From: Rubritalea sp. | GTDB taxonomy: Bacteria > Verrucomicrobiota > Verrucomicrobiia > Verrucomicrobiales > Akkermansiaceae | Direction: 5' to 3' | DNA: 64,000 nucleotides | Assembly: GCF_051252225.1 (NCBI RefSeq) | Contig: NZ_JBPOGE010000009.1 | Coordinates: 33,709 to 97,708, forward strand | Part shown: positions 5,759-44,541 of the stretch, piece after piece | How the letters are laid out: each line of letters opens with the position of its first letter | Numbering within the stretch: the first letter of the stretch is position 1 | Notes under the pieces: generated by a model | Told to the model about the DNA's origin: nothing | The model's input: the letters and a program-made list of their open reading frames with translations, nothing else | Database searches by the model: none | Made by a program: the position numbers and the translations under genes

Positions 5759-6130
5759 ATGAGCCCTTCTGAATTAGTTTTCGTATACGGAACTTTACGG
5801 AAGGGGGCATCAAACGCGCAACGCATGACGTCTGCGCGTTTTTTATTTGCAGCATTCTTGCCTGGAGAAATGTACCGAGTGGATTGGTATCCCGGTGTGG
5901 TTTTGGGCGAAGGGTCTAAGGTTATCGGAGAAGTTTACGAGGTGTCACTGGAACTCCTTAAGGAGCTCGATAGGTACGAGGGGTATGAATATGAGTGCAC
6001 TCGCGTATCTGTAGAGGATTCAGTTGGCGTGACTCATGATGTGCTGGTTTATGCTTACAGTCAGGATACAAAAAACCTCCAGAAAATCCCGAGTGGAGAT
6101 TGGCTGGAGGTCGAGAGGGGGATTTCGTGA
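5759..6130 (+). CDS. Gamma-glutamylcyclotransferase (AIG2-like) family protein
   Basis: VFVYGTLRKG, YPG, GEVYEV, LD.YEG motifs. Confidence 0.85.
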   Translation: MSPSELVFVYGTLRKGASNAQRMTSARFLFAAFLPGEMYRVDWYPGVVLGEGSKVIGEVYEVSLELLKELDRYEGYEYECTRVSVEDSVGVTHDVLVYAYSQDTKNLQKIPSGDWLEVERGIS

Positions 6131-6133
6131 AAA

Positions 6134-6688
6134 TTAGCGGGTTGTAAGACCTACGTTTTTGTTCACGAGAGTGATTTTATATGGATCGTAATTATCTCTC
6201 GGTGAGAAAATCCAGCCCGGTGCGCGGTCGAGCACTTGGTAGCCAGAGGCTTTAAATTCAGGTAAAAAGAGGTTGCTGGCTGGATCGTAAATTTTGCGAC
6301 CGGTGTAGGAGCCTGTGAGCTTGTATTCGTAATTCTGATCATACCCGTGGCGGGCGTTTGATGGACCATCTTCCGGGAGGCGGTCTGGCTGCGGGCGCAC
6401 GGATTCATTCATCATGACGAGCTTGGCCTCTGACCAAGGTTGACGTGGTTTACGCACGTAGCCCCAGAAGCGGGTCTTAGAGACAAAGTAGCGGCGAGCA
6501 TAGTAGAAGTCGCCAGTTGGCTCCGTGAGGATATCTAGCTGACGTTGCTCTGCAGTAATCTCTTTACCTCCAAGACTGGAGGACGAGCCTGAGCCGCCGA
6601 TCGTGCCAGCGCAGTTCGTGAGGTTGATGGCTACTAAAGCGGAGGCAATTACTGTGAGACCTCTTGCTATGAATGAATGCATGCGCAC
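6134..6688 (-). CDS. Hypothetical lipoprotein
   Basis: Basic N-terminus, hydrophobic stretch and lipobox-like LTNC followed by a Gly/Ser linker. Confidence 0.6.
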   Translation of the reverse strand: MRMHSFIARGLTVIASALVAINLTNCAGTIGGSGSSSSLGGKEITAEQRQLDILTEPTGDFYYARRYFVSKTRFWGYVRKPRQPWSEAKLVMMNESVRPQPDRLPEDGPSNARHGYDQNYEYKLTGSYTGRKIYDPASNLFLPEFKASGYQVLDRAPGWIFSPRDNYDPYKITLVNKNVGLTTR

Positions 6689-6936
6689 ATCTTTTACGGA
6701 TAGTCTAATGCGTCAAGATCAAGCAGGGCACGTGCAACACTTATTAATTCCGCATTACATACATTGTGTTAAGTTATTAATGTGTTTAAATGAGCTTTGA
6801 TTTAACCATATTGTAATGTTTCTGTGTGAATTGTGCTTTTGAGAAGCACTGTAGGCTTGCTTGCTTGCGCATGCAGATTTATTGAATTTGCGTACACGCT
6901 CATTAGAGCCAACACCAACACAACTTTATATTTCAA

Positions 6937-8208
6937 GTGCCACTCAACGACATACGCAAAAAAATCGATGAGATTGATTCCCAGCTCATTCAGATCCTCA
7001 ACGACCGCGCTTTGAGTTCCGGCACTGAGTCCCTACAAACCGAGTCAGAGTTGCGCAACAAATTGGACAGCCTCAGTGATGGGCGCATCCCAGCGGATTC
7101 GATGTTCTACATTTACCGCGAAATCGTCTCATCTGGTTTGGCTCTCAGCGATGATTCTCAGCTAGCAAAACTCGTTGAGCTCCTCAATGACCGTGCGGAT
7201 TGTGTTCACGTCGTTGGTGAAATTAAGAAAAAAGAAGGTTTGCAGATTTATGCACCTGAGCGTGAAGAATCTCTCCTTCGTAAGCTTTCAGCGCTCAGTG
7301 ATGGCGTAATCCCTGAGAAATCTATCCGAGCGATTTATCGTGAGATCATGTCTGCAGCTCTAGCGCTCGAGGATGATCTTAAAATTGCCTACCTCGGACC
7401 TGAAGGTACTTGGACACACCAAGCTGCCATTTCTAAATTTGGCCACAGTGTTACCTATTTACCTCAGGCTAATTTTGCGGATGTTTTCGAATGTGTTAAT
7501 GATGGCGAAGCCAGTTATGGCGTTGTTCCTATTGAGAATTCAACCGAAGGAGCCGTTTCTCACACGCTCGATCTATTTGTAGATTCTCCATTAAAGATTT
7601 GCGCTCAGATTTTGATGCGTATCGAAAATGGTCTCATGGCTAGTATTTCACGCGATTCCATAAAAACTCTTTATTCACACCCACAGGTGTTCGGGCAATG
7701 TAAGCATTGGATAATAGACAATCTTCCGGATGCCGACCTCGTAGAAGTCTCTTCGACCACTAAGGCTGCTAGCATCGCCAAAGATAAAGCAAATGAAGGT
7801 GCTGCCGCTATGGGTGGCCCTTTAGCTGCTGAAATGTATGGCTTGAACATGCTGGAGTCTGGCATCCAGGATAACTCTAATAATACCACACGCTTTCTAG
7901 TGATTGGCGAGAAAACATGTCCGCCTACTGGTGACGACAGGACCTCCCTGCTCTTTTCCGTTAAAGACGAGCCAGGATCCCTAGTCAAAGCTCTGCAAAC
8001 CTTTCAAGGTCAATCGATCAACATGTCTAAGATCGAATCTCGTCCATCGAAACAACGCGTCTGGGAGTATTACTTCTACGTCGATATTTCAGCTCATGCT
8101 GAAGATGCCAATGTAGTACGCGCCCTCGCCCAACTTGAGGAGCATTGCTCGATGATTAAGATTCTAGGCAGCTATCAAGATATGAAAATTTCAAACACAA
8201 CTAACTAA
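6937..8208 (+). CDS. pheA: Chorismate mutase/prephenate dehydratase with a duplicated chorismate-mutase domain
   Basis: GTG start. AYLGPEGTWT, PIENSTEG, NTTRFLVIG PDT motifs and ACT domain (KIESRPS). Two AroQ-like repeats in the first ~145 aa. Confidence 0.93.
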   Translation: MPLNDIRKKIDEIDSQLIQILNDRALSSGTESLQTESELRNKLDSLSDGRIPADSMFYIYREIVSSGLALSDDSQLAKLVELLNDRADCVHVVGEIKKKEGLQIYAPEREESLLRKLSALSDGVIPEKSIRAIYREIMSAALALEDDLKIAYLGPEGTWTHQAAISKFGHSVTYLPQANFADVFECVNDGEASYGVVPIENSTEGAVSHTLDLFVDSPLKICAQILMRIENGLMASISRDSIKTLYSHPQVFGQCKHWIIDNLPDADLVEVSSTTKAASIAKDKANEGAAAMGGPLAAEMYGLNMLESGIQDNSNNTTRFLVIGEKTCPPTGDDRTSLLFSVKDEPGSLVKALQTFQGQSINMSKIESRPSKQRVWEYYFYVDISAHAEDANVVRALAQLEEHCSMIKILGSYQDMKISNTTN

Positions 8209-16098: not shown

Positions 16099-17619
16099 TT
16101 AGTCGTTATCGACTAACTTAATCGCGTCTTTATCGACAAGATGGATACTAAAGGTATGTGGGTTTTCAACAAGCTTTCCAGTAGCTATTATATTTTGGTT
16201 CAGTAGCTTATGCCTGAGTTCTGGGAGTTTTAACTCGGGATAAAACTTGTCTGTGTCCGCTGACATACAGATTGTGCCCTTGCGGGATTTTGCTGAAGTG
16301 AATGTAAGGACGTAGAGGTTGCCTTTTGCGATAATGATATCCTTGAGCACACCTTTGAGCAGCACTTCCTCACCAACATGCGCTTTGGCTTTTTTGACAT
16401 CCTTATATTTAAGGATAACTCCTGTTTCTGGAATATCAGAAGTGTCTACTGAGATCTCGTCTACAGCTTCCTCCTGAGTCTTTTTCTCAGCTTCTTGCTG
16501 CGCCACCATCTTAGCTTCTTGCTGGATACTTTGCTGCTTCGCCTTCTGCTTCTTTGAGGCTTCTTTCTTTGCCGTATTACGTGGCTGGCTATCGATGTCC
16601 TCCAGCTCATATTCAGAAACCACTTCAAAGCCACCCTCATCATCAGAGCCCTGACTAAATATGTACGCGCCACCAGCTAGCACAAGACATGCTAAGACTG
16701 CGATGAGTAACACAGGTGGTTTGCTCTTTGTGGCCACAGGGAGCGAAGTCACCCCTGCTACTGCCGGTGCCGTGTCCTCGGTTTCGTCTGTGGCTAACTC
16801 TTCAGAAAGACCAGCAAAAGCAACTGCTTGAGCAACAGGATTTTCTGGTGCCGCTGTTTGGATGATTTGAGCAACCGGCTGTGGCTCAGGAGTCATTGCG
16901 ATCAGTGCGTCTAAAGCTACTTGTGCGCTGGCATAGCGTTGTTGTGGATCATCGTGAACCATCGCGGCATTCCACGCGCTGAATGCTGGGTCTGCGGCTA
17001 AATCCCCCGCTGCTACTTCTAATGTCTTCCCTAAGCAAAACAGATCAGACTGAGCAGAAGCGTGTTCGCGAGCGATCAGCTCAGGAGCCGTGAAACCATC
17101 ATTCTTAAAATGGTTCACACCATATTTACAGCGCAGTGCTCGGATAGGGTCCCAGGTGATCACCCATGGAGACTTGTGTTCCGCATTGGTGTAGAAAAGT
17201 GAATCTGGAGCTAGTTTTGCCTGTAGGACTCCCATCGCATGTAGACTTACAAATCCTTCGAGAACAGACTTTGCTATTTCATAAGTGAGCTCTAGTCCTA
17301 GTCCAGTACGCTCATACAGTTGCTCCTTTAGGGAGCTGACTTCGATTTGCTCAAAAATGGTACAAGCCTTGCCATCGCATGGGTCTAGACCACCATCCAT
17401 GATAGATCTAACACTCGGTATATTCTGTCCGCTAAATTCACTGATGAGTTGGGTGAATTTCTCTGACCACCCATCTACTTTCCCTATCTCAGAAGAATCA
17501 TCAGTCATATAACGTTTGATCAGGCACTGTTGACCAGATTCCTTCTCAATGGCGCTATAGATCACAAATAACGGAGCTTGCTCCACCATCTCCTCAATCT
17601 GGTAATTCTCTTCAATCAT
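16099..17619 (-). CDS. Membrane-anchored protein-kinase-fold protein (probable pseudokinase)
   Basis: LIK lysine, FTAPE and SDLF.LG retained; HRD and DFG absent. Single TM, then an extracytoplasmic domain. Confidence 0.65.
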   Translation of the reverse strand: MIEENYQIEEMVEQAPLFVIYSAIEKESGQQCLIKRYMTDDSSEIGKVDGWSEKFTQLISEFSGQNIPSVRSIMDGGLDPCDGKACTIFEQIEVSSLKEQLYERTGLGLELTYEIAKSVLEGFVSLHAMGVLQAKLAPDSLFYTNAEHKSPWVITWDPIRALRCKYGVNHFKNDGFTAPELIAREHASAQSDLFCLGKTLEVAAGDLAADPAFSAWNAAMVHDDPQQRYASAQVALDALIAMTPEPQPVAQIIQTAAPENPVAQAVAFAGLSEELATDETEDTAPAVAGVTSLPVATKSKPPVLLIAVLACLVLAGGAYIFSQGSDDEGGFEVVSEYELEDIDSQPRNTAKKEASKKQKAKQQSIQQEAKMVAQQEAEKKTQEEAVDEISVDTSDIPETGVILKYKDVKKAKAHVGEEVLLKGVLKDIIIAKGNLYVLTFTSAKSRKGTICMSADTDKFYPELKLPELRHKLLNQNIIATGKLVENPHTFSIHLVDKDAIKLVDND

Positions 17620-17929
17620 GAAATTTTTTCTACAATTCTCCCTGTAGTTTTATGGGGGGCAATAACAACTAACAGATGTCTAGGCGGATAGTTAGCTCCT
17701 AGAATAATGACATCAAGAGTAAATGCCATCATCGCCCCATTTACTCACCCTTCAGTAGGGTTAACTTTGCGTTTTATACAACTTTATCCTCGCCATCACG
17801 GACCTCACTTTTTATGAGTGAGAGTGATCTCAGCATGTGTCGCTCAGTCATTGTTTTACTACTGTCGCACCCACGTGCGCCCCCCATTCCATTTCACTCT
17901 AAACGCGCCACTCTCCGACCATCCTCAAC

Positions 17930-18276
17930 ATGCCCGCTCAAAGAAGACTGCTAAAAAATCCGCTCAGGCGAAACCGACCAAATCCTTCGCGGAATCTCTC
18001 TTGGAAACCGAGACCAAGCTCCGCGGTTCCGTCGAGTCCTCGGACGTGCGCGTCGCCGACACTGCCAACTACGCCTGGATTCTCTCCAAGGTCTCCAAGG
18101 TCTCCGAGCACGGGGTCGTCGGCTTCGTGCTTGTCAACGGCTCCATATCGACCAACACCAAAGGCGAAGGCGCGATCCGTCAGAAGATCGTCGAGAACTA
18201 CCTCGTCGACTGCATGATCGCTCTTAGTTTGTTCCGGTCATTAATGCGATTCTCTTTCCACCCGTCTCTCAACTAA
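17930..18276 (+). pseudogene. hsdM: Type I R-M methyltransferase (HsdM) relic, frameshifted after MPA and internally deleted
   Basis: N-terminal SFAESLLETETKLRGSVESS joined directly to ANYAWIL...GVVGFVLVNGSISTNTKGEGAIRQKIVENYLVDCMIAL. No NPPF/Y motif. Similarity lost after ~18225. Confidence 0.8.
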
Positions 18277-18294
18277 GCTTTTAGTCGCATACTT

Positions 18295-19392
18295 ATGGAC
18301 GCCCAGCTAACTACATCAAATCCTGAAGCCCAGAAAGCAGGCGACGTCTCTAAATCAGAAACGACAGGGATAAGTGCGGATGCCGCTATAGGAACACCGG
18401 TTGATGATCCCTCAAACATGCAGAAGCGAGACGAGGTTCTCGATAGTATTGGACGAAACGGATTAGTCGTTGTTATCGGTGCGGGCGTCTCGCTTCAATC
18501 GGTTGGTCATCCGGGGCAATCAACTGATGTCGCAGGCTGGCCTGGACTTTTGACCCACGGAGTGGAACACTGCTTGAAGCATCAACTTCTCGTTGCTGAC
18601 GAGGCGAATCTTGTTAGGGAGCAGATCAGGATAGGCACCAACAATGGCAAAACCGACTATCTAATCGAAGCAGCTCAAAGAATTCACGACAGCCTAGATA
18701 AGAGAACCAACGGGCGTTATTGGTGGCTTCATGATTCAATCGGTCAACTTACGGTAAAAGAACCCCGTCTGATTCGGGCGATTCAAGGGATGGGAGGCCT
18801 AGTCACGACTCTGAATTATGACAGTCTTGTGGAAGATGTCACCGAATGGCGCCCTATTGAATGGCATCAACGGACTGAGGTTACACGCTGTATGCACGAC
18901 CGAGAGAGGGACGTAGTACTGCACCTCCACGGATTTTGGAAAAACCCCGATTCAATTATTCTGGATCGACTATCGTATGAAAAAATTAGCGTTCACGAGG
19001 ATACCCGCGATCTCCTTCGCGACTTTTCTCGGAACTACACACTTCTTTTTGTTGGGTGTGGCGACACTTTCTTCGACCCGAATTTCCAGACATTACTTCG
19101 TTGGGCGAGAGATGCGCTTCAGGGAGTTCAACATAGGCACTATATTTTGTGTAGGCAGTCAGATGAGCCGGGGCTCTTCAACTCACTTCAGGAACATGGT
19201 TATCTGGACACCCTAGTCTACGGAGACAGCTATGATTCCCTCAGTCCTTTTTTAGAAGAAATTGGAAAAGAGAGTGGAACATCGTCTGAAGCAACCAATC
19301 CTCCGCTTGTCCCAGTCACAGGATTGAAAGCTGACTCAATTTCAAAACCACTAAAGCCCTTCGATATATGGAAACTCCAAACGCAACGCTGA
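18295..19392 (+). CDS. SIR2-like (NAD+-cleaving, defence-type) domain protein
   Basis: VIGAGVS, WPGLL, TTLNYD, VLHLHG, LLFVGCG..DPNF. The Asn and His typical of active SIR2 NADases are present. Confidence 0.88.
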   Translation: MDAQLTTSNPEAQKAGDVSKSETTGISADAAIGTPVDDPSNMQKRDEVLDSIGRNGLVVVIGAGVSLQSVGHPGQSTDVAGWPGLLTHGVEHCLKHQLLVADEANLVREQIRIGTNNGKTDYLIEAAQRIHDSLDKRTNGRYWWLHDSIGQLTVKEPRLIRAIQGMGGLVTTLNYDSLVEDVTEWRPIEWHQRTEVTRCMHDRERDVVLHLHGFWKNPDSIILDRLSYEKISVHEDTRDLLRDFSRNYTLLFVGCGDTFFDPNFQTLLRWARDALQGVQHRHYILCRQSDEPGLFNSLQEHGYLDTLVYGDSYDSLSPFLEEIGKESGTSSEATNPPLVPVTGLKADSISKPLKPFDIWKLQTQR

Positions 19393-22300
19393 CACCTTCC
19401 CTGATGCAGGAAGTTTTCCTTCTCAAGCGTGATCAGGCAGTCGAAAAAGTGAATGCCGTGTTTGACGGAAAAACGAGAGAGTTATGTATTCGTACTCGAT
19501 ATCCGAAAGAGGTTGCCGGATTCATATCGGCCTGTCTTGCCCAGCGTGGTGAACTCGAAACGGGAGCCGGTCCACGCTGCTCATTCGTTAGTGATAAATC
19601 AACTTGGCACTCTCTTTGCTCACCTGAGAGTGTCACAAACCAGATCCTCATAGCCGATCCAGAACTCGACTTTGATTCTGCCCGCAGTGAGCTGCTGCCG
19701 CATGCTCGGCAACGTGGCCATGCTGTCATCTTCAGTCTTGCTAACCCTCGTCCAGATACTACGGAGGTGGTTACACTCAATGAGCCACAGCAGTTTGATG
19801 TTCTAGAGCTTCTAAAAAAGCATGAATATCCCGCAGGTAAGGCGGAGCAACTTGCCCAACAGAGCAATGGGAATATCCACATATTGACTCGGCTTTTAAC
19901 TGGAACCAATGACCGTCCGGAGTGGGCAAAGGGAGACTTAGGTTACCATTTGCGTTGTCTGGCGCTTTTAGGCGGTTGGAGCGATTCATCGGAACATGAC
20001 CGATCAGCTCTCACTGAAATCATCGGCGAGCATTATGAGATTTGGGTTCAGCGGGTCTATCCGCTCACCAGGAATGATGAACCACCAATCTTGTTGGATG
20101 GAAATTTGTTCCGACCTGTTTCCCGTTACGAGTCTTGGCAACAATTGGGTCATTTTCTGACCGACGGAGACCTTCGTCGGTTTCAAACAGCGTGTGAACA
20201 TCTGCTTGCGGATATTTCACCTGAACTCGAACTTCCAGCGGACGAACGTCATCTTGCAGGTTTCAAAACCAACCGAGAAACCCATTCAGCAGCGCTCCGC
20301 AAAGGTATCGCAGAATCTCTCGCCTTGCTAGGCGGACAAGGAAGTAAACTTTCCTGTAGTCCCAATCTCGCAAGGACAGTTGCTGACAATGTCGTATTTT
20401 CGTTATTCAAGGAGGCAGATTGGCAACGCTGGGCTAGTTTGGGTTCGATCATGCCACAATTGGCCGAAGCTGCTCCAACTGTATTTCTCGATGCCGTCGA
20501 CGAAGCTTTAAAAGATTTAGAATCGAGTCCTCTGAAGGAGCTATTCGCTATTTACGAGGGTTCGATTTTCGGGCGGAACTATCACTGCGGATTGCTATGG
20601 GCACTTGAAGTGCTTGCTTGGAATGCGGATCACTTGAGTCGTGTTTCCGTCGCACTAGCTAAGCTTTGTCAATTCGATCTGCCCCAGAATTCAGGAAATA
20701 ATCCAGCGGCAACATTGCGAAGCATGTTTTTGACATGGTTGCCGCAAACACTGGCTAGTGTGGATGCGCGTCGTGCCGCGGTGGAGCGAGTAATTCAAGA
20801 AAACGTAGAATGCGGTTGGGATCTTCTGCTTGGAGTCTTGCCGGATAGTCACCAAGTTGGAAGCCACAATCAAAAGCCGGCGTGGAGAGATTGGTTTCCC
20901 AGTGACTGGTCCGAAGGAACTACCCGTTCAGTAATGCATAAGCAGGTTCAAAACTATACGAACTTAGCAGTTAACATTGCAATGGGTGATCTTGATAAAC
21001 TCACCGAATTGATTTCTCGCTGGGATCACCTGCCTCGGGAGATTTTCCAGAAAGTGTTGGATCATTTGGAGACGCCGGAAGCTCTGAGACGTCCGAATGA
21101 GGAGCGCTTTAAACTGTGGGAGAAACTTACTGAACAAATCGATCGTCACCGCAAATATGCGGAATCCGACTGGGCGATGCCAGAGGAGGAAATCGTAAGA
21201 TTAGAGAAAGCTGCACTGGCTATCAAGCCGACTGATCCTGCAATAATTCATCAAAGGATCTTCAATTCGTATGCTCATGAATTCTATGTAACGGATAATT
21301 ACGCGGAGGAAGAAAAGGCACTCGCTAAGAGACGTGAAGATGCTGTGACTGAAGTGCTGGAGAAATATGACCCACAGCGAGTAATAGAATTGGCTAGAGT
21401 GGTAAATTTTCCTGTTGAAGTAGGTAGTGCCTTAGGACGAATCGGCACCGAGAATTTGGATCGATTTCTTCTGCCGAAATACCTACAGAACACCGACAAG
21501 CCTGTGGTGGAGCTCGTGCGTGGCTATTTATGGGCACGATACCAGAATGTTCCTGGAGATTGGGTCACAGGCTTAGATCTAAATACTTGGACTTTAAAGC
21601 AGAGAGGCTTATTCTTGTCGTATCTTCCTTTCACTGCTGATGTCTGGCGCTTAGCCGAGCTATTTCTCGGTGATAAGTTGTCAGAGTATTGGAGTCGGAT
21701 TTGGCCTAATGTTTTTCAGGTGAAGGGTAATTTTATTGAGGCAGCTGAAAAGTCTCTTGAAAATGATCGACCAGAAATCGCCATTGATTGCATAAACGCC
21801 CTCAAGCATGAGAATAAGGAGATTCCTACCGGCTTAGCGACTCGGGCAGTAAAACAGCTTTTGACCGATGAACGGGCTGTTGGAAACTTCGATCAACACC
21901 ACTTGCTCGAAGTTATTAAACATCTTCAATCTGCAAATGATGTGGATGCTGACGATATGACCTGGATAGAATTTCAATGCCTTAAGCTGCTAGATCGGTT
22001 CTCGGGCGGGAGTCCAGTGTTTTTGGAGCGCAATTTGGCAACGGAACCTCTATTTTTTCATGATGTCGTTAAAACTTGCTTTCGTTCGGAGAAAGATCGC
22101 GACAAGTCGCCGGAAGTGGACGAACAAACGAAGATTATGGCGGAACAGGCATACCGACTGTTACATAACTGGCACACTCCGCCAGGCACGACATTGGAGC
22201 AAACTATTGACGAACCCGCCTTTATTAAGTGGATTGAAAAATCTCGAGATCTTTGCGAAGAATCGGGACATTGGACAATAGCTCAGCAGATGATTGGGCA

Positions 22301-22607
22301 CAGTTTGAAATATTCTCCTGCTGGTTTAGAGGGTATATTGAAGTACCCAGCAGTGGCGAATTGCTTGGATGCCTCCGAACACGAGCATATGCGCAGAGGT
22401 TTAACTACAGAACTGTTCAACAGCCGCGGAGTCCATGGTTTTAGCGGTGGGAAAGCGGAGTTGGAGTTAGCTGAAAACTATCGCTCGCGTGCCGATCAGT
22501 ATGATTTGGCCAAATTTACGCGCATTGCAACGAGCCTTCGTGGTCTGGCTGAAGGTTTTGAACGCGATGCGGAGCGCGAAACTAAACGAGACCCATATAG
22601 AGACTGA
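19368..22607 (+). CDS. 1079-aa uncharacterised, largely helical protein overlapping the SIR2 ORF (putative sensor)
   Basis: Long open frame with a 25-nt overlap in the -1 frame. N-region has an alpha/beta NTPase-like pattern (strand ILIAD) without a canonical GxxxxGK[ST]. The remainder is Trp/Leu-rich helical repeat-like sequence. Confidence 0.75.
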   Translation: METPNATLTPSLMQEVFLLKRDQAVEKVNAVFDGKTRELCIRTRYPKEVAGFISACLAQRGELETGAGPRCSFVSDKSTWHSLCSPESVTNQILIADPELDFDSARSELLPHARQRGHAVIFSLANPRPDTTEVVTLNEPQQFDVLELLKKHEYPAGKAEQLAQQSNGNIHILTRLLTGTNDRPEWAKGDLGYHLRCLALLGGWSDSSEHDRSALTEIIGEHYEIWVQRVYPLTRNDEPPILLDGNLFRPVSRYESWQQLGHFLTDGDLRRFQTACEHLLADISPELELPADERHLAGFKTNRETHSAALRKGIAESLALLGGQGSKLSCSPNLARTVADNVVFSLFKEADWQRWASLGSIMPQLAEAAPTVFLDAVDEALKDLESSPLKELFAIYEGSIFGRNYHCGLLWALEVLAWNADHLSRVSVALAKLCQFDLPQNSGNNPAATLRSMFLTWLPQTLASVDARRAAVERVIQENVECGWDLLLGVLPDSHQVGSHNQKPAWRDWFPSDWSEGTTRSVMHKQVQNYTNLAVNIAMGDLDKLTELISRWDHLPREIFQKVLDHLETPEALRRPNEERFKLWEKLTEQIDRHRKYAESDWAMPEEEIVRLEKAALAIKPTDPAIIHQRIFNSYAHEFYVTDNYAEEEKALAKRREDAVTEVLEKYDPQRVIELARVVNFPVEVGSALGRIGTENLDRFLLPKYLQNTDKPVVELVRGYLWARYQNVPGDWVTGLDLNTWTLKQRGLFLSYLPFTADVWRLAELFLGDKLSEYWSRIWPNVFQVKGNFIEAAEKSLENDRPEIAIDCINALKHENKEIPTGLATRAVKQLLTDERAVGNFDQHHLLEVIKHLQSANDVDADDMTWIEFQCLKLLDRFSGGSPVFLERNLATEPLFFHDVVKTCFRSEKDRDKSPEVDEQTKIMAEQAYRLLHNWHTPPGTTLEQTIDEPAFIKWIEKSRDLCEESGHWTIAQQMIGHSLKYSPAGLEGILKYPAVANCLDASEHEHMRRGLTTELFNSRGVHGFSGGKAELELAENYRSRADQYDLAKFTRIATSLRGLAEGFERDAERETKRDPYRD

Positions 22608-22765
22608 TTCTGAATAAGATAGTCTTGCCGGAATTCGACGCCTCGAGGGCTTCGGTCCGTGAAATGCGCTGTTGGTTTCAGGAAATCGACGGTGGATGCG
22701 CACGTATAGGGGCCAGGCAATATTTCTTGCTAGAAAGCCAGTATGCAGTGAATTGTTCGTCCGTT

Positions 22766-22846
22766 GGTCAGGGCAAGGACGAGCGCAAGAAGTTCGATAT
22801 CCAGTTTAAAAAGGCGGAGTCCAATTTCAAGATCGCCATCGTGGTG
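22766..22846 (+). pseudogene. hsdR: Type I R-M restriction subunit (HsdR) fragment
   Basis: GKDERKKFDIQFKKAESNFKIAIVV resembles the HsdR segment that precedes DMWLTGFD. The rest of the gene is absent. Confidence 0.6.
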
Positions 22847-23083
22847 GGGATTGAAGTTTGAAATTAGACGTAAGAAATCAGGAAATTAGAACTGATACGA
22901 GTAAGTGGAAGCCTCAGGAAATTTCCGGTGCGGGTGGTGATGCTCGAGTGCCGAGGACGCTTGCCAATCAGCTAGATTGGTAGGTGCCAATCTAGAGGAG
23001 GCCAGAGTCGCGCGGAGAGCTTTAAGAAAAATAGGCGATATTAGGTGGAGTTTTGGCGTGTGTGCGATTAAGCCCCCTCCCCT

Positions 23084-23246
23084 CTACCATCCGCTGCTCT
23101 CGACTTGTCATTTTCCGACCAGGTTTTGGTCAAAGTCGTCGAAGAAGCGTGAGGGTGTTTGCATGTACTCGCCGGTGTCGTTTATTCGATTTATCGTCGG
23201 ATATGTGAGGTAGTAGAGCTCGCCCTTAGCCTGAGTGAGGGTGACT
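23084..23246 (-). repeat. Decayed direct-repeat copy of the 3' end of the second uvrD (26721-26880)
   Basis: 91 of the first 100 nt identical by manual alignment, including the TAG stop and VESSGW. The copy has a TGG>TGA nonsense change and a 3-nt insertion. Confidence 0.95.
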
Positions 23247-23506
23247 TAACCAAACCTAAGTAGGCGTTACCTTCTCTACTGGATTTGTATAATATAACTC
23301 ATCATTACCTCCAAAATATCATCATAATTCAAACTATAGTTTATATTTAACATATTAATGTAATTCATGGATACACGTAAAACGTTTCATATTGAATCGA
23401 GCTCAATATATTGACTTTCAGAAGATTACGAAACATCACCACCCAAGAAACGCACTCTTTTAAACCTATGTAATTAAGAGTGATATATATCTACCCCCAA
23501 GAATTA

Positions 23507-24235
23507 ATGTCTAAAACCGCACTATTTTCAGATATCCACGCGAACCTGAATGCTCTCGAAGCAGTCATTAACGATGCAAAAAGCCAAGGTGTACAAAATT
23601 TCGCATGCTTAGGAGATGTTGTAGGTTACGGCCCCAATCCTATTGACTGCATAGCAGCAGTACAGGCCATCGACTGTGTTTGCGTAAAAGGCAACCATGA
23701 TGAGGATGCATCAAATGATAGAGTGCTTGATAATTTAAATGACCAAGCTCGTGCTTCTCTAGAGTGGACAAGAAGCATGCTAAGTGAGTCACAAAAATCT
23801 TGGCTGGCAAACCTTCCATACAAAAGAAGACTGGGAAGAAACATGCTGGTACATGCGGCTCTAGAAAACCCTGGGGAATGGGAATATCTCCGAAACAGCT
23901 TCGACGCTGAAATAGCGATGCTCACGCAGCCAACGCCTATTTGCTTCTTCGGACACACGCATAAGCCGGTCACCTACACCCAAAAAGGGAAGAGTGTCTC
24001 CGTGCTAACCGAGCAGGAAATAGAGCTCCACCCTGATCAGAAATACCTTATTAATGTTGGGTCTGTCGGCCAACCAAGAGACGGAATTCCAGAGGCTAGC
24101 TATGTAGTCTTCGATCGTGAAAAAAGAACAATTAACTTCAGAAGGGTCAAATATGACATCCACTCTGTGGTCCAGCAAATAACAGAATCAGGCTTACCTC
24201 TCAGCTTAGGCGATCGCCTAATTTCTGCAGCATAA
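23507..24235 (+). CDS. Calcineurin-like metallophosphoesterase (PPP/YfcE-like)
   Basis: SDIHAN, LGDVVGYG, GNHD, HA, FGHTH, NVGSVGQPRD. Likely start MSKT at 23507. Confidence 0.9.
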   Translation: MSKTALFSDIHANLNALEAVINDAKSQGVQNFACLGDVVGYGPNPIDCIAAVQAIDCVCVKGNHDEDASNDRVLDNLNDQARASLEWTRSMLSESQKSWLANLPYKRRLGRNMLVHAALENPGEWEYLRNSFDAEIAMLTQPTPICFFGHTHKPVTYTQKGKSVSVLTEQEIELHPDQKYLINVGSVGQPRDGIPEASYVVFDREKRTINFRRVKYDIHSVVQQITESGLPLSLGDRLISAA

Positions 24236-24250
24236 TTTATCAATATCATC

Positions 24251-24541
24251 ATGTCTAATTTAACCCATTTTCAAGTTCAGCGCGGATCAGTCGTAAGCGA
24301 TTGCATGCCAGAAACATATGAATTCATCAGTCAAAACCTTGACTATTTTTATAGTGCTCTCCAGCCACTCAAGAATGCTTTAGCAGAAGACGGCCCTATC
24401 ACATTCATCTCACACGAATCTCAATGGTCTTTCGCTGTATCTGTAGAGAAATCTGAATTAGGGAGAGTCGCTTCTGGTAGCGGTGTCATCTCTGAGGGTG
24501 GTGCATGTCCATATGACGATCTCAGTGAGGCTATTTCCTAA
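24251..24541 (+). CDS. Hypothetical 96-aa protein, possibly Roadblock/profilin-like
   Basis: In-operon ORF. A beta-hairpin/helix/three-strand pattern is suggested by eye only. Confidence 0.5.
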   Translation: MSNLTHFQVQRGSVVSDCMPETYEFISQNLDYFYSALQPLKNALAEDGPITFISHESQWSFAVSVEKSELGRVASGSGVISEGGACPYDDLSEAIS

Positions 24542-24573
24542 GTACTTGATTCAACACACAAACACTAAATCAT

Positions 24574-25227
24574 ATGTATCAGGAACTCATCGAGCTGCTC
24601 TATGAAAATGAAGCCGTTGAAGCCGTGGCTCTTTTCACCGATCAAGGCCATTTAATAGAAAACCAGCTCGCTATTAGCGAAAGTACGATCACTCAAGTCT
24701 GTGCATCCTTAGTAACCATCAAAAATGGTTTGGCTGGATCCAACAGAGAGATGAAAGGTTTTCTCGTTAAAACCCAGAAATACACCCTGCAAGCGTACGT
24801 GCACAGTGACTTACTTATCCTACTCCAAGTAAGCTCGAATTTCTCCATTAATAAAACGTACCATAATATTCAGTCGCAACTTGGTCAAAAAACTTATTCA
24901 CCCGCTAGTGGTGATGCCCAAGCCGTCTCTAGCAATACTCAGACCGAAGTCGCGCAGAGTGAGCAAGCTGAATACTCCGTGGAATGGGATGATTTTAGAC
25001 AGAAGCTAGCCACACTGATCAAACGCATAGCCCCAAGTGGTGTAGCTAATAAAATGATCGATACTTCAATGAAAGAAGCTGGTTACGCAGATTCCCCCAT
25101 TAGCCTGCCTTTTGAAAATGCAGTCGCTATCGGTCAGTCTGTAGTCGCAAAAATACCTAATGCGAGTCGAAGGAAACTTATTGATCAAGAATTTCAAGTC
25201 TTAGCAGAACAATTTGCGCAGCAATAG
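24574..25227 (+). CDS. Roadblock/LC7 (MglB-like) domain protein with C-terminal helical domain
   Basis: Helix-VEAVALFTDQGHLI-helix-strands pattern in the first ~100 aa, polar linker, helical C-domain. Confidence 0.6.
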   Translation: MYQELIELLYENEAVEAVALFTDQGHLIENQLAISESTITQVCASLVTIKNGLAGSNREMKGFLVKTQKYTLQAYVHSDLLILLQVSSNFSINKTYHNIQSQLGQKTYSPASGDAQAVSSNTQTEVAQSEQAEYSVEWDDFRQKLATLIKRIAPSGVANKMIDTSMKEAGYADSPISLPFENAVAIGQSVVAKIPNASRRKLIDQEFQVLAEQFAQQ

Positions 25228-25272
25228 CCTTTCACCTCACAACATTCAATTTCGATTCTACTCTCTACTCTA

Positions 25273-26586
25273 ATGAAAAAACAGACACTACTTACCACCC
25301 TATTACTTTGGTGCTTATTTTACTCTTCAGCTTACTCACAAGAAGTGGGGGCTGCTGCCCTCGATAAATCCGATAATGTGTTCATTCTTATATGCGCAGC
25401 TATGGTATTCCTAATGCAGGCTGGATTCTGCCTGCTAGAGATGGGTTTCTCTCGCGCTAAAAATGCCATCAACATTGTCATGAAAAATGCCTGTGACATG
25501 TCTGTGGGCTCTATAGGGTTTTTCCTCGTAGGTTTCAGTCTCATGTTTGGCTGGTCACAGGGTGGCATTGTTGGCCTAGGAAATTTTGGGTTTAGCTCTG
25601 ACTTTCTAGGATCAAATGCCATTTGGATTTTCTTCTTATTCCAAGTGATGTTCGCAGCAACGACTGTAACCATTTCCTCCGGCGCAATGGCTGAACGCAC
25701 CTATTTCCCAGGTTACCTTGTTTATGCAGCGATTGCCTGTACCTTCATTTATCCTATACTTGGTCATTGGGTTTGGGGTGGCGCTAGTACTCCTTTCGGC
25801 TTTGGTGGCGGAAAAGGATGGCTCAGCGCATTGGGCTTTCATGACTTTGCAGGATCCACAGTGGTTCACGCAGTAGGTGGCGCATTCGCACTTGCGGGCA
25901 TCATCGTTATTGGGCCACGTCGTGGACGTTTCTTAGACGACGGCAGTGAAAAGATTTTCGCTGGGCACAATATCCCACTTGGCTCATTAGGCATGTTCTT
26001 GCTCTTCTTTGGCTGGTTTGGATTCAACTGTGGGTCAAATTTATCTGCTGGCGCAGAAATAGGAAGAATAGGCGTGAACACACTTCTGGCAGGAAGCGGC
26101 GGCTTAGTAGCTGGCTTGGTATTTCATTGGATATTCAAAGGCTGGGCTGACCCTGAATCTGCCATTAACGGTGCTTTAGGTGGCTTAGTAGGCATCACTG
26201 CTTGTTGTGACGTAGTAGCTCCATGGGCATCTATTCTGATCGGTCTCATCAGTGGTTTTATCACCGTGATTGGCGGCAAGTACCTCCTACGTGCTAAACT
26301 AGATGACGCTGTGGGAGCTATACCTGTTCACCTGTTTTGTGGAATATTTGGCACACTTTGTGTCAGTATTTTCAATGAATCAGCCCCTTTCTCAAACTTC
26401 GGGATCCAAGCTTTAGGAGCTTTTGTAGTCCCAGTTAGTGCTTTTGCATTCAGTTGGTTTGTCTTCTATCTCATCAATAAAACGATCGGTCTACGAGCTT
26501 CAGATGAAGCGCAAGAACAGGGTCTAGACTTTGCTGAGCACTCTGCAACAGCTTACCCAGACTTTGCATCTAATGATGATGAATAG
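25273..26586 (+). CDS. amt: Ammonium transporter (Amt family)
   Basis: FLMQAGF..LE.G..R.KN, FQVMFA, HWVW, DFAGSTVVH, GWFGFN, DDAVGA.PVH. Twin His and Phe gate present. Confidence 0.96.
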   Translation: MKKQTLLTTLLLWCLFYSSAYSQEVGAAALDKSDNVFILICAAMVFLMQAGFCLLEMGFSRAKNAINIVMKNACDMSVGSIGFFLVGFSLMFGWSQGGIVGLGNFGFSSDFLGSNAIWIFFLFQVMFAATTVTISSGAMAERTYFPGYLVYAAIACTFIYPILGHWVWGGASTPFGFGGGKGWLSALGFHDFAGSTVVHAVGGAFALAGIIVIGPRRGRFLDDGSEKIFAGHNIPLGSLGMFLLFFGWFGFNCGSNLSAGAEIGRIGVNTLLAGSGGLVAGLVFHWIFKGWADPESAINGALGGLVGITACCDVVAPWASILIGLISGFITVIGGKYLLRAKLDDAVGAIPVHLFCGIFGTLCVSIFNESAPFSNFGIQALGAFVVPVSAFAFSWFVFYLINKTIGLRASDEAQEQGLDFAEHSATAYPDFASNDDE

Positions 26587-26720
26587 TAGTTCACGATGAC
26601 CGCGAACTACTCTATCACAGATATTCTATTCGTTCTTATTGAGTTTTACTTACAGCATCTACCAAGCATTAAATCTATTTGTACGTTGCTGAATAGGCTG
26701 TGGTAACTCTATCAAGAAAT

Positions 26721-28745
26721 CTACCAACCGCTGCTCTCGACTTGCCATTCTTCGACCAGGTTTTGGTCGAAGTCGTCGAAGAAGCGTGAGGGCGTCTGCA
26801 TGTACTCGCCGGTGTAGCTTCTAGGGTTAGTCGTCGGGTATGTGAGGTAGAGCTCGTCCTTCGCGCGAGTGAGGGCGACGTAGAATAAACGGCGTTCTTC
26901 CTCTAACTGCACATTATCGTCAGTTTCAAGTATTCGCTTGTTTGGGAACATACCATCGGCGAGCCAGACGAGGAAAACGACTTTCCACTCGAGCCCTTTG
27001 GCTTGGTGGATCGAGCTGAGAGTGACCGCGTCTTCGTTCTTTTCCTCTTTCTTAGATTTCGGGTCACCATCGGCAGTGCTCATGAGGGAGAGCTGAGCGA
27101 GGAACTCATTTATATCAGTGTAGCCCTGCGCGTACTGCATGAGCTGCTGGACGTCTTGCTTACGCTGCTCGTAGTTATCGAAGCTCTCGCGCATGTAGTC
27201 ATCGTAAACCCCTTCGGTGATACTGAGGATCATTTCTGAGGGCGCTTGGTAGCCATCGCGGGTGACGAGTTCATCGAGCGTGTAACAAAGCTGTTCCCAG
27301 TGTGCTGCCGCCTTTTTAGGAACTTTGAAGTCACTGAGGTATTCAGAAAATGCGAGTGGTGGGTCTTCGTGCTGGCTGACCGGGCATGCGAGCCAAGCCT
27401 TCCAGAGGTTGTCCGCACTCTTGGGGCCGATCCCTGGCAGCATCCCGGCCATACGCTTGAAAGAAATCTCGTCTTTCCGATTCACTGCGAAACGGATGAA
27501 CGCGGAAACGTCTTTGATGTGTGCTTGCTCAAAGAAGCGGAGCCCGGAAGTGATCTGAAATGGAATGTCGCGTGAGGTCAGCTCCATTTGGATTTCCATG
27601 CTCTGGTAGTGTGCACGGTAGAGTACGGCGATCTCGCTTGGTTCCATTCCCTCGCTCACGAGGTCTTGAATCCGCTGTGTGACAAAGTCTGCCTGAGCTC
27701 GTGGGTCACTGAGTGGAATCACGGCGGGCACCATGCTGCCTTTTCCGCGGGAAGCGCGCAGCTCCTTAGGGATCTGGCTTTCGTTGGCTTTGATAGCCGC
27801 ATTTGAGAGTTCTAAGATCTCTGGGCAGCTGCGGTAGTTGGTCTCGATCTTGTAGACCTTGGCATCTGGGTAGCGCGTGTGGAAGCTGAGGATATTATTC
27901 ATATCCGCACCACGCCACGAGTAGATCGACTGCGCATCGTCCCCCACTACCATTAGGCTATTTTTAGGTCCAACAAGGATGTCAATGAGTTCACACTGGA
28001 TGCTGTTAGTGTCCTGGTACTCGTCTACTAACACATAGCGGAACTTGCGCTGATAGAGCTCGCGCAGGTCTTCGTCTTTCTTGAGCAGCTTGAGCGCCAA
28101 TATCAAGAGATCGTCGAAGTCCATGCAATTGGTATCGAGCTTCTTCTTCACGTAGGCACGTTTGAGTTGCTTGATCTCCTGTTCCCATTCTTTGAAGTAG
28201 GAATAGGATTCTTGGATGATCTCCTCCACTGAGTTCTTCGTGTTCTCTGAGAGACTGAAAATAGAGAGCAGAACGTCAGGCTTAGGGAAGCGGCGGTTCT
28301 TGGTGTCTATCTTTGCCTCAGCGATGAGCGCCCTGAGAATCGATTTTTGATCGTCGGTGTCGAGGATGGAAAAGTTGCGCGTGAAACCTAGTTCATCAGC
28401 GTGTCGGCGCAGCATGCGATTACAGATCGAGTGGAAAGTGCCACCCCACAGCTCACTGGTGTCGTGAGGGATGAGATCGGTCACTCGCTCGAGCATCTCG
28501 CGGGACGCCTTGTTGGTGAAAGTGAGAAGTAGGATGTTTTTAGCGGCGACTTCTTTATCTAGCAGAAAGGCCACGCGGTAGGTTAAGGCGCGTGTTTTCC
28601 CACTACCAGCACCAGCGATCACTAATGCGTGGCCAGGAGGTGAAGTGACGGCAGCATATTGCTGGTCATTGAGCTCTGCTCGGTAATCGATACCTGAGCT
28701 CGTTCCTTCGCTCTGCCTAGAGTTGAGTTTGTATTCGCGCGCCAT
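26721..28745 (-). CDS. uvrD: UvrD/PcrA superfamily-1 DNA helicase (copy 2)
   Basis: AGAGSGKT, VDEYQDTN, GDDAQSIYSWRGA, SIHQAKGLEW, EERRLFYVALTRA. Confidence 0.95.
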   Translation of the reverse strand: MAREYKLNSRQSEGTSSGIDYRAELNDQQYAAVTSPPGHALVIAGAGSGKTRALTYRVAFLLDKEVAAKNILLLTFTNKASREMLERVTDLIPHDTSELWGGTFHSICNRMLRRHADELGFTRNFSILDTDDQKSILRALIAEAKIDTKNRRFPKPDVLLSIFSLSENTKNSVEEIIQESYSYFKEWEQEIKQLKRAYVKKKLDTNCMDFDDLLILALKLLKKDEDLRELYQRKFRYVLVDEYQDTNSIQCELIDILVGPKNSLMVVGDDAQSIYSWRGADMNNILSFHTRYPDAKVYKIETNYRSCPEILELSNAAIKANESQIPKELRASRGKGSMVPAVIPLSDPRAQADFVTQRIQDLVSEGMEPSEIAVLYRAHYQSMEIQMELTSRDIPFQITSGLRFFEQAHIKDVSAFIRFAVNRKDEISFKRMAGMLPGIGPKSADNLWKAWLACPVSQHEDPPLAFSEYLSDFKVPKKAAAHWEQLCYTLDELVTRDGYQAPSEMILSITEGVYDDYMRESFDNYEQRKQDVQQLMQYAQGYTDINEFLAQLSLMSTADGDPKSKKEEKNEDAVTLSSIHQAKGLEWKVVFLVWLADGMFPNKRILETDDNVQLEEERRLFYVALTRAKDELYLTYPTTNPRSYTGEYMQTPSRFFDDFDQNLVEEWQVESSGW

Positions 28746-32001: not shown

Positions 32002-32745
32002 TTACTTCGCTGCGTCTTCTTGCTTCAGCGCCTTAGTGATTTCTGCCGCAACCTGAGCCGCCATTTTTTCAGATCCAGCTTTGGCAAAATGGACGTCCCC
32101 CGGCTTACTGAATGAGGAAGCATCCATACTCGCTGTGAGCGCGTATAGATCATCAATAGCAATTCCGTGATTATCCATTACTTGCTTAGCAGCAGCATTA
32201 TACCTCAAGTCGTCTCCCACGAATCTTCCTGCTTCATCTTCAGGGACTTTCGTGGTGCTAGCCCAGATCAGAGTCGCTCCAGTTTTCTCTAAGCGCTCAA
32301 CTAACTGCTCTAAGTTCTGTTGATACTTTTCTATCGGAACTGACACAGAGCCATTGACTTTGTCACGCTTACCATAGGTCTTCGCCTCAGGGTGTCTGAA
32401 GCATAAGTCGTGGAGTCCCCAGTTGAAGTGGATCACGTCCCACTTCTTATCACCAAGCCATTTATTGAGATCCTTCAAACCCCTCTCCGTGTCTCCGCAG
32501 TTCACTCTAGCCTTGTTAGTCGGACGGCTGACATTCGCCACACCATCGAGTAATTCAATCACTGCTGGCGTATAGCCGATTGAGATAGAATCACCGAGTA
32601 AAAGAACATTCGGTAGGTTTACATCCTCCTTTTTATTTTCCTGAATAGAATCAAGGTCTTCTTTAGGCGTGTAAAACTCGCTACTCGCGATGAGTGAGGA
32701 TAATAAAAAGAGTGGGATTGTAAGGAACTTTCGGAAAGTTTTCAT
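32002..32745 (-). CDS. Exported SGNH/GDSL hydrolase
   Basis: Signal peptide, GDSIS, NWGLHD, GDVHF blocks. Confidence 0.88.
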   Translation of the reverse strand: MKTFRKFLTIPLFLLSSLIASSEFYTPKEDLDSIQENKKEDVNLPNVLLLGDSISIGYTPAVIELLDGVANVSRPTNKARVNCGDTERGLKDLNKWLGDKKWDVIHFNWGLHDLCFRHPEAKTYGKRDKVNGSVSVPIEKYQQNLEQLVERLEKTGATLIWASTTKVPEDEAGRFVGDDLRYNAAAKQVMDNHGIAIDDLYALTASMDASSFSKPGDVHFAKAGSEKMAAQVAAEITKALKQEDAAK

Positions 32746-32904
32746 AGGTTTAGAGTGGTTAGTTTACCCTGCAGTATTGCCTAGTAGTCACAGGATTGTA
32801 CTATTTAGATTTCTGAATCAGATAAATACAGGAAATTATTGAGCCATGTGGATCGAAGTTACTTACCAGTTTATTCCCTGTTTCGCGATCGGTGAATAAA
32901 TTGA

Positions 32905-43650: not shown

Positions 43651-44541
43651 TTAGGCAACTACACCCATCGATTTATCAACCAAATCTTGAATTTGTTCTT
43701 TATTGCGGAATCCCATGGTTTCCCCAGCTGAGAAAACGCGAGTCTCCCCTTTGATGTGTGAGCGCTGCTCGAGGAATGCAAGGAGGTGCTCACGGTAAGT
43801 GAAGAACTTCTGATCATTAAAGATTTCCTGTCGGTTACGCGGACGTGGGAAATCAATTTCGAGAATTTCTCCTAACCCAGCCTTAGGGCCATTTGACATC
43901 ATTACACAGCGATCCGCCATAAATACGGCTTCATCAACATCGTGTGTAACAATCATCGCCGTAAGTTTTTCGCGTTCAAGAATATCAATAATGACATCCT
44001 GTAGCTCCATACGAGTCAATGAATCTAGTCGACCAAAAGGCTCATCAAGAAGCAGCACTTTAGGCTGAAGAGCAATCGCTCTCGCTATACCAACACGCTG
44101 CTGCATGCCGCCAGATAGCTCCTTTGGGTATTTCTTCATGGAGTCAGCTAGGCCAACGACAGAAAGTGAATGCTCGACAATCTGCTTCTGAGTAGCCTTA
44201 TTAACGTGTGGATAGACGTTTTTCACTCCAAGCATCACATTAGCGTAGGCTGTCAACCATGGCATCAAGCATGGTGCCTGGAATACCACAGAGCGATCAG
44301 GACCCGGGCCGTCGATCTCCTTATTCCCTACAATGATACCCCCGCCAGAAATCTCATTGAGCCCTGCGAGCATTGTGAGAACCGTGGATTTACCACAACC
44401 AGAGTGACCAATGAGTGAGATGAATTCCCCCTCCTTGATATTTAGGTTGAAGTCTTCAACTACGCGGAAAGGATCACCGTACGGATTCGGGTATTCTTTA
44501 ACGAGATTTGAAATCTCTACAAATTTTAAATTCTCAGACAT
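43651..44541 (-). CDS. nrtD: Nitrate/nitrite-type ABC transporter ATPase (NrtD-like)
   Basis: [30 protein letters not shown]. Confidence 0.88.

Follow-up and report, generated by a model that had tools for sequence, protein, structure and literature searches.

A decayed duplicate of the uvrD 3' end beside newly acquired genes in Rubritalea sp.: a probable scar of one-sided recombination

Introduction

How does a housekeeping gene come to have a second, decayed copy of its own last codons lying on the far side of an operon? The question is raised by a stretch of 64,000 nucleotides (nt) from Rubritalea sp. (Akkermansiaceae; contig NZ_JBPOGE010000009.1, positions 33,709 to 97,708), hereafter called the window, in which the helicase gene uvrD faces a 3.4-kb operon of four genes, the last of them encoding an Amt ammonium transporter, and in which a piece of the uvrD 3' end lies orphaned beyond that operon. 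An initial annotation took this arrangement for the footprint of integration at the uvrD 3' end. That account is right in outline, in that the duplicate brackets a lineage-specific insert, relatives carry empty sites and the homology ends at the stop codon; the scar is, however, better read as integrase-independent than as the trace of a mobile cassette or an attachment (att) site. On balance, we favor the view that the orphan is a dead duplicate of the uvrD end, left behind by one-sided recombination with DNA from a near relative and formed without a dedicated integrase/att system.

Results

Two copies of the uvrD 3' end

The argument turns on three features (lengths of proteins in amino acids, aa):

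23083-23281, minus strand: orphan uvrD 3' end, decayed (core 23083-23248; 23249-23281 weaker and indel-rich)
26720-26909, minus strand: matching 3' end of the intact uvrD, in which homology to the orphan ends one base beyond the TAG
26721-28745, minus strand: intact uvrD/pcrA, 674 aa (Pfam UvrD-helicase 2e-81, UvrD_C 2e-56; full-length orthologues 83-91% identical)

The two ends form a direct repeat on the same strand, in which a repeat search and MAFFT alignment matched 23083-23213 with 26720-26850 (131 nt, 88% identity) and, offset by a 3-nt insertion in the left copy, 23213-23248 with 26847-26882 (83%), the overall identity of the orphan to the intact end being 86-88%. Gapped local alignment extends the repeat to 23083-23281 versus 26720-26909, that is, to ~190 nt or ~62 codons plus the stop, of which the added 33-nt stretch (23249-23281) is the weak part. 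Pairwise alignment of the two copies bears out the repeat that had been described around the 3.4-kb cassette, and the 91 identities initially counted over the first 100 nt are correct; the longest identical runs common to both repeats measure at most 23 bases. Only two copies exist in the genome (G000, 3.5 Mb in 45 contigs), where they match each other with E = 7e-48 and the next-best match has E > 1. Moreover, Logan contigs from SRR34144890 and SRR34144889 match the window at 100% identity across 13.5-20.4 kb and span both copies; the presence of both in two independent assemblies excludes an artefact of assembly. Chance similarity and a chimeric assembly can be dismissed as explanations with near certainty, refuted as they are by the E value within the genome and by the two identical assemblies.

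The homology between the copies ceases one base past the TAG stop codon of uvrD, and the sequences that follow (475 nt on the orphan side and 133 nt on the intact side) are unrelated, with an alignment score of 16 against a shuffle mean of 15. This is the boundary to be expected if the copies stem from two genomes that had uvrD in common and differed downstream of it. If, instead, the duplicate had arisen by rearrangement within one genome, either through tandem duplication of the uvrD 3' end plus operon with subsequent loss of one operon copy, or through a long target duplication at a staggered break, a homology end at the stop would be a one-in-hundreds coincidence; no flank common to both copies is found beyond the gene fragment. 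Such a rearrangement would account for the fact that the two copies are each other's nearest relatives, and a tandem segmental duplication cutting a gene is indeed present in the genome (contig C2, 73277-73682 and 79625-80028, beside paralogous gene pairs). Against it, the operon is missing from all close relatives and hence was no old neighbor of uvrD, and its GC content at third codon positions (GC3) looks foreign; furthermore, no transposition mechanism is known to produce a target duplication of 190 nt, and terminal inverted repeats do not exceed chance. We consider an intragenomic origin quite improbable.

Decay of the orphan copy

The orphan reads ...GEYMQTPSRFFDDFDQNLVGK*QVESSGW* (asterisks, stop codons), with an in-frame TGA, and is further damaged by the 3-nt insertion and by a patch with 9 changes in 21 nt. 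Over 159 aligned core positions, 21 substitutions separate it from the intact copy. At 11 of these sites the intact copy agrees with all eight orthologues compared and the orphan with none, which identifies the changes as derived in the orphan; many of them are G-to-A or C-to-T, including TGG to TGA. The remaining 10 are wobble-type sites, which vary among the orthologues too and are saturated between species. The resulting rates of change, ~10% at constrained sites and ~19% at wobble sites, are those expected of a neutrally decaying copy compared with a normally evolving gene, so that the synonymous differences are no evidence of a foreign allele. The proposal that the displaced end had decayed is borne out by the in-frame TGA, the insertion and the 11 derived substitutions, whereas the use of synonymous divergence as a sign of origin in a related lineage fails, 11 of the changes being orphan-derived and 10 lying at saturated wobble-type sites. 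Judging from these patterns, the orphan is a dead duplicate that has drifted neutrally, with ~10% change at otherwise invariant sites.

The mutual identity of the copies is 86-87%, while against ten orthologous uvrD ends the intact copy reaches 68-82% and the orphan 60-74%. The initial annotation had proposed to determine which copy is nearer to the orthologues; the comparison proved uninformative, both copies ranking the orthologues alike with the orphan merely 5-10 points lower. That the copies are closer to each other than either is to any orthologue (at most 82%) implies that donor and recipient were near kin, and also places the event after the divergence from the nearest sequenced species (uvrD 79% identical at the DNA level). 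The event would accordingly appear, from sequence comparison, to postdate that split and yet to be old rather than recent.

The uvrD locus in relatives

We compared 12 genomes or contigs whose uvrD is 83-100% identical, this genome among them. The locus has a conserved frame, Adk-Fmt-TPR-uvrD on one side and PHP-methyltransferase on the other, with a variable interval between. Neither the duplicate nor the cassette is present at uvrD in any of the 11 relatives (uvrD 83-91% identical), the operon being missing from seven close species genomes and not adjoining uvrD in four further metagenome or assembly contigs. In no sister genome does the cassette stand beside uvrD with the duplicate absent, and the empty site predicted by the initial annotation is found in four of the relatives. 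The interval is filled as follows:

Empty, uvrD facing PHP directly across 20-50 nt: G015, G021, L102, L182
A 92-aa DUF465 gene: L179, L180
Kinase and SpoU genes: G023, the closest species (uvrD 91% identical in aa)
A polysaccharide cluster: G008, L181
Mur ligase, Xer-like recombinase and GMP transferase genes: G016
Cut by the contig end: G002

At least six fillings are represented among these 12 close genomes. Here the interval measures ~11 kb, ~9 kb of which is lineage-specific: relative to G023 the window has ~9 kb extra (17725-26720), the far boundary following from the collinearity of 17610-17724. A second copy of the gene's own 3' end downstream of uvrD was seen at 0 of ~90 loci from genomes and metagenomes, ~45 of which include 3 kb or more of flanking sequence. 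Synteny breaks in this interval, but the uvrD end itself does not serve repeatedly as an attachment site. The notion of an insertion hotspot holds insofar as the interval is variable; it does not hold for the 3' end itself, which is nowhere else duplicated, and the fillings are mostly of a housekeeping type.

Two observations on these loci may be recorded. The Xer-like gene of G016 encodes a 292-aa XerC/D-like tyrosine recombinase between the Mur-ligase and GMP-transferase genes and is probably a housekeeping Xer. In the closest relatives, a second, distant UvrD-family helicase (~30% identical, 664 aa) is encoded just upstream of Adk-Fmt-TPR-uvrD (31-1452 in L039, from G023; 5839-7833 and 2033-4027 in L179 and L180, respectively).

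Anatomy of the block

The genes and spacers between the kinase gene and uvrD are these:

16099-17619, minus strand: kinase gene, by gene order in the window
17610-17724, minus strand: native DNA upstream of the kinase gene, collinear with the spacer between uvrD and the kinase gene in G023; far boundary of the lineage-specific block
17818-22607, plus strand: defence island with an hsdM relic, a SIR2 gene (365 aa) and a gene for a 1079-aa partner (Pfam)
22608-23082, no strand: non-coding stretch of 475 nt from the 1079-aa gene to the orphan stop, unrelated to the spacer after the intact uvrD
23282-23506, plus strand: AT-rich non-coding leader of the operon, 225 nt (38% GC in 23200-23799)
23507-24235, plus strand: calcineurin-like metallophosphoesterase (Pfam), first operon gene
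24251-24541, plus strand: 96-aa protein with no Pfam family, conserved in every operon copy
24574-25227, plus strand: 217-aa protein with no Pfam family, fast-evolving, a marker of the operon
25273-26586, plus strand: Amt ammonium transporter, 437 aa, last operon gene, convergent with uvrD
26587-26719, no strand: spacer of 133 nt between the Amt and uvrD stop codons, by coordinates

The metallophosphoesterase reading frame is open from a GTG at 23480, and its homologues begin at the ATG at 23507. GC3 amounts to 36-42% in the four operon genes, the lowest of the neighborhood, to 44-45% in the island, to 66% in uvrD and to 44-59% in other nearby core genes, the genome as a whole having 47.6% GC. 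As for the non-coding DNA, the leader (23282-23506) has no homology to other copies of the cassette, to relatives or to the rest of the genome, and the non-coding flanks of the block are not repeated elsewhere in the genome. When compared with the uvrD-kinase spacer of G023, the 133-nt spacer showed a marginal likeness (54 of 1000 shuffles score as high), and the only credible spacer match is the kinase-proximal one, whose best local segment is equalled by 20 of 1000 shuffles. The 220 nt beyond the orphan stop (22862-23082) contain a short palindrome-like stretch (ccaatcagctagattgg ... ccaatctag) with no match in relatives or elsewhere in the genome.

Search for mobility functions

An element that integrates into the 3' end of a gene would be expected to bring a recombinase, and the layout invites this comparison. 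In Escherichia coli K-12, e14/phage 21 integrates into the 3' end of icd and leaves the icdC pseudogene (Hill, Gray and Brody 1989; PMC13626634). By analogy, the block could be the remnant of a site-specific integrative element whose phage-type attachment site (attP) mimicked the uvrD 3' end and whose mobility genes were later deleted. The topology is that of icd-e14-icdC, with the gene completed by the element-proximal copy and the displaced pseudogenic 3' end on the far side (PMC13626634); the length of the repeat is similar to that in the icd case, and ~10% neutral decay would make the event old enough for mobility genes to have been lost. Direct repeats that duplicate a gene 3' end do flank the insert here, and uvrD is intact.

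However, neither a recombinase nor a relic of one lies between the repeats, where there is one complete, conserved operon and 358 nt (225 + 133) of non-coding DNA. Pfam searches detected no recombinase or transposase domain in any open reading frame (ORF) of the block and, among the small ORFs of 22467-23213, neither a recombinase nor any sign of an hsdR relic, and PF00589 has no match anywhere on the 107-kb contig, which upholds the earlier statement that no integrase is present. What is left as non-coding DNA, 475 + 225 + 133 nt, offers too little room for a concealed recombinase relic. Scans for tRNAs, Rfam families, promoters and terminators gave nothing above background. Further against an e14-type remnant, no duplicate of the 3' end is seen at the ~90 other uvrD loci, the operon occurs in six other contexts with neither repeats nor recombinases, and an ammonium-transporter operon would be unusual as sole cargo. 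We consider such a remnant unlikely. Insertion of a transposon or insertion sequence was also considered and rejected: there is no transposase, the inverted repeats at the cassette ends (23290-23315 and 26563-26588, 73% complementary) are at chance level, the flanks are unrepeated, and the duplication is ~190 nt long rather than short.

The operon in other genomes

Within the genus, the whole operon with its 217-aa marker is present in only two other species, G006 (Amt 72-73% identical) and G013 (67-68%); it is also found in a few metagenome-derived genomes, for a total of at least seven Akkermansiaceae genomes or contigs (loci L158, L162, L163, L071 and L072 among them). The nearest copy, L158 (GCA_051252195.1), comes from the same sample series and is 83% identical in Amt, 74% in the phosphoesterase and 57% in the 217-aa protein, its homology in DNA covering exactly the coding block, 23507-26587. 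In its six other contexts the operon has as neighbors ExbBD and a PEP-CTERM protein, ParB, a phosphoribosyltransferase, an M48 peptidase and TrkH, or a sulfatase, and in five other genomes no flanking direct repeats above chance surround it. The initial view of the cassette as a mobile or mobilised element finds no footing here, as nothing marks it so and the same four genes stand together in those contexts with no flanking repeats. By its distribution, the operon is a conserved functional unit of Akkermansiaceae, gained horizontally in this genome and not self-mobile. A distant 217-like gene is paired with a 52-53% identical Amt in G034 and G038.

Similar layouts in the same genome

We screened the genome for two-copy direct repeats of 100-450 nt, at most 40 kb apart, of which one lay in a long ORF while its partner did not. 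The screen returned the uvrD pair and a few others, the clearest of which concerns aspS (609-aa aspartyl-tRNA synthetase, AspRS) on contig C1. The last ~286 nt of that gene (361825-362110) are duplicated at 95% identity ~1 kb off (360513-360792), and between the copies lies just one gene, for a 200-aa PEP-CTERM protein, which reads towards aspS; the homology stops ~ten bases short of the stop codon, and the final codons differ between the copies. Both loci have the same four parts, namely an orphan 3' end, a promoter region, an insert transcribed towards the host gene and the intact gene, and aspS is a second, younger case of this layout. Relatives carry a different gene in the aspS gap (in G015, a 310-aa gene between a cupin-like neighbor and aspS), and no clean empty site was found among them. 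It is conceivable, if rather far-fetched, that Rubritalea recurrently inserts small cassettes at the 3' ends of housekeeping genes with no integrase, the replacement end being supplied by the cassette; if so, the uvrD and aspS layouts would represent an unrecognised mechanism of cassette insertion and not two accidents.

Two further repeats deserve a word. On contig C18, 234-nt direct repeats that are 80% identical (32599-32832 and 43860-44092) bracket an 11-kb block encoding a HipA-like kinase with a small helix-turn-helix partner, a 994-aa ATPase-like protein, a 598-aa protein, a cytosine-methyltransferase fragment and a 287-aa protein; this is possibly a defence or toxin-antitoxin island with repeat boundaries. 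On contig C2, in the duplication mentioned above, a copy of the last 406 nt of a 398-aa gene, 85% identical, stands beside a second copy of a pair of genes for 227-aa and ~1145-aa proteins. The C2 pair is an ordinary tandem segmental duplication with a gene-cutting edge, and so another route to orphan gene ends.

Discussion

The route that we infer from the structure and uniqueness of the repeat, the empty sites, the missing mobility genes and the direction of decay is as follows. Incoming DNA from a close relative would have borne its own uvrD 3' end next to genes that the recipient lacked, and recombination would have been anchored in uvrD homology on one side only, either through one crossover with a circularised fragment (Campbell-type insertion-duplication) or through homology-facilitated illegitimate recombination. 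The product would be a complete uvrD, an orphaned 3' end and, between them, the 3.4-kb operon. Two versions of this scheme fit equally well. First, the operon would be the newcomer if the donor carried it after uvrD and if recombination in the last ~190 nt of uvrD, by way of a circularised fragment or of an exchange on one side only, displaced the resident 3' end, which would have stayed attached to the resident downstream DNA, that is, to the island. Second, if the donor carried uvrD followed by the SIR2 island, a linear fragment starting 190 nt inside uvrD could have been anchored by homology on the kinase side and illegitimately joined beside the resident operon at 23281/23282, in which case the island and the orphan would be the newcomers. 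Either version is consistent with an orphan gene fragment that lies beside newly acquired DNA, with homology ending where conservation ends, and with the absence of the insert from close relatives. The low GC3 of the operon, the like layout at aspS and the precedent of stranded 3' regions in Rhs and T6SS arrays speak for the scheme as well.

Several results weigh against the one-sided exchange that we favor. No related genome was found in which uvrD adjoins the insert: the operon never does so in its six other contexts, and no donor arrangement turned up in a search that was weak in power, the collections holding nothing nearer than 90% uvrD identity (best of 5.8 billion proteins 90%; metagenome scan 85%), so that intermediates are unseen. 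Look-ups of exact protein matches yielded no closer strain, the contigs found all being 100% identical to the window. The SIR2 island, for its part, has no relative in any of the 24 other species of the genus. Nor did sliding-window identity along uvrD to eight orthologues reveal a significant recombination breakpoint; the advantage of G023 is lost in the last 75 codons, which is within window noise. An Amt gene near uvrD in G011 proved to be a different paralogue (52% identical) that has no partner genes and is separated from uvrD by a kinase gene.

If our interpretation is correct, the scar allows the acquisition of genes to be dated and oriented in a marine verrucomicrobial lineage that is uncultured: an operon for nitrogen uptake and a defence island with SIR2 would have accumulated behind uvrD since the nearest species branched off, at least one of these gains by one-sided rather than double-crossover recombination. 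For annotation, 23083-23281 is best labeled a uvrD pseudogene fragment and not an att site or a small ORF. The scar may also bear on the fate of the operon, since the premature stop in the orphan means that recombination between the repeats would truncate the UvrD end; loss of the operon by this path would presumably exchange the last ten residues of UvrD for two. More generally, a duplicated gene end alone is insufficient for calling an integrative element.

Taken together, we argue that this scar is a further example of an already known kind of event, and its likeness to three known systems is instructive. With e14 at icd it has in common that the insert-proximal copy completes the gene and that a C-terminal pseudogene of much the same size, displaced and directly oriented, lies beyond the insert, synonymous differences included; e14, however, has an integrase, SOS-induced excision and phage genes, whereas here recombinase, phage and conjugation genes are all missing and relatives do not reuse the site. 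The likeness to accessory-gene hotspots between core genes lies in the uvrD-PHP interval with its many fillings, although ordinary double-crossover turnover leaves no duplicate, and the orphan points to one exchange that was one-sided. A third parallel is offered by the effector-immunity arrays of Rhs, contact-dependent inhibition (CDI) and type VI secretion system (T6SS) loci, where homology in a conserved gene serves as the anchor, new DNA comes to lie beside that gene, and an old or surplus 3' piece is stranded downstream with no need for a recombinase. Both versions set out above are of a sort known from transformation experiments. Orphaned 3' regions in Rhs and T6SS loci have been ascribed to integrase-independent insertion, by one-sided or homology-facilitated illegitimate recombination (PMC5361080, which cites de Vries and Wackernagel 2002 and Prudhomme et al. 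2002). In contrast to those arrays, the anchor at the present locus is a housekeeping repair helicase rather than a polymorphic toxin gene, the orphan is single, no donor arrangement has turned up, and what was carried in is either a metabolic operon or a defence island.

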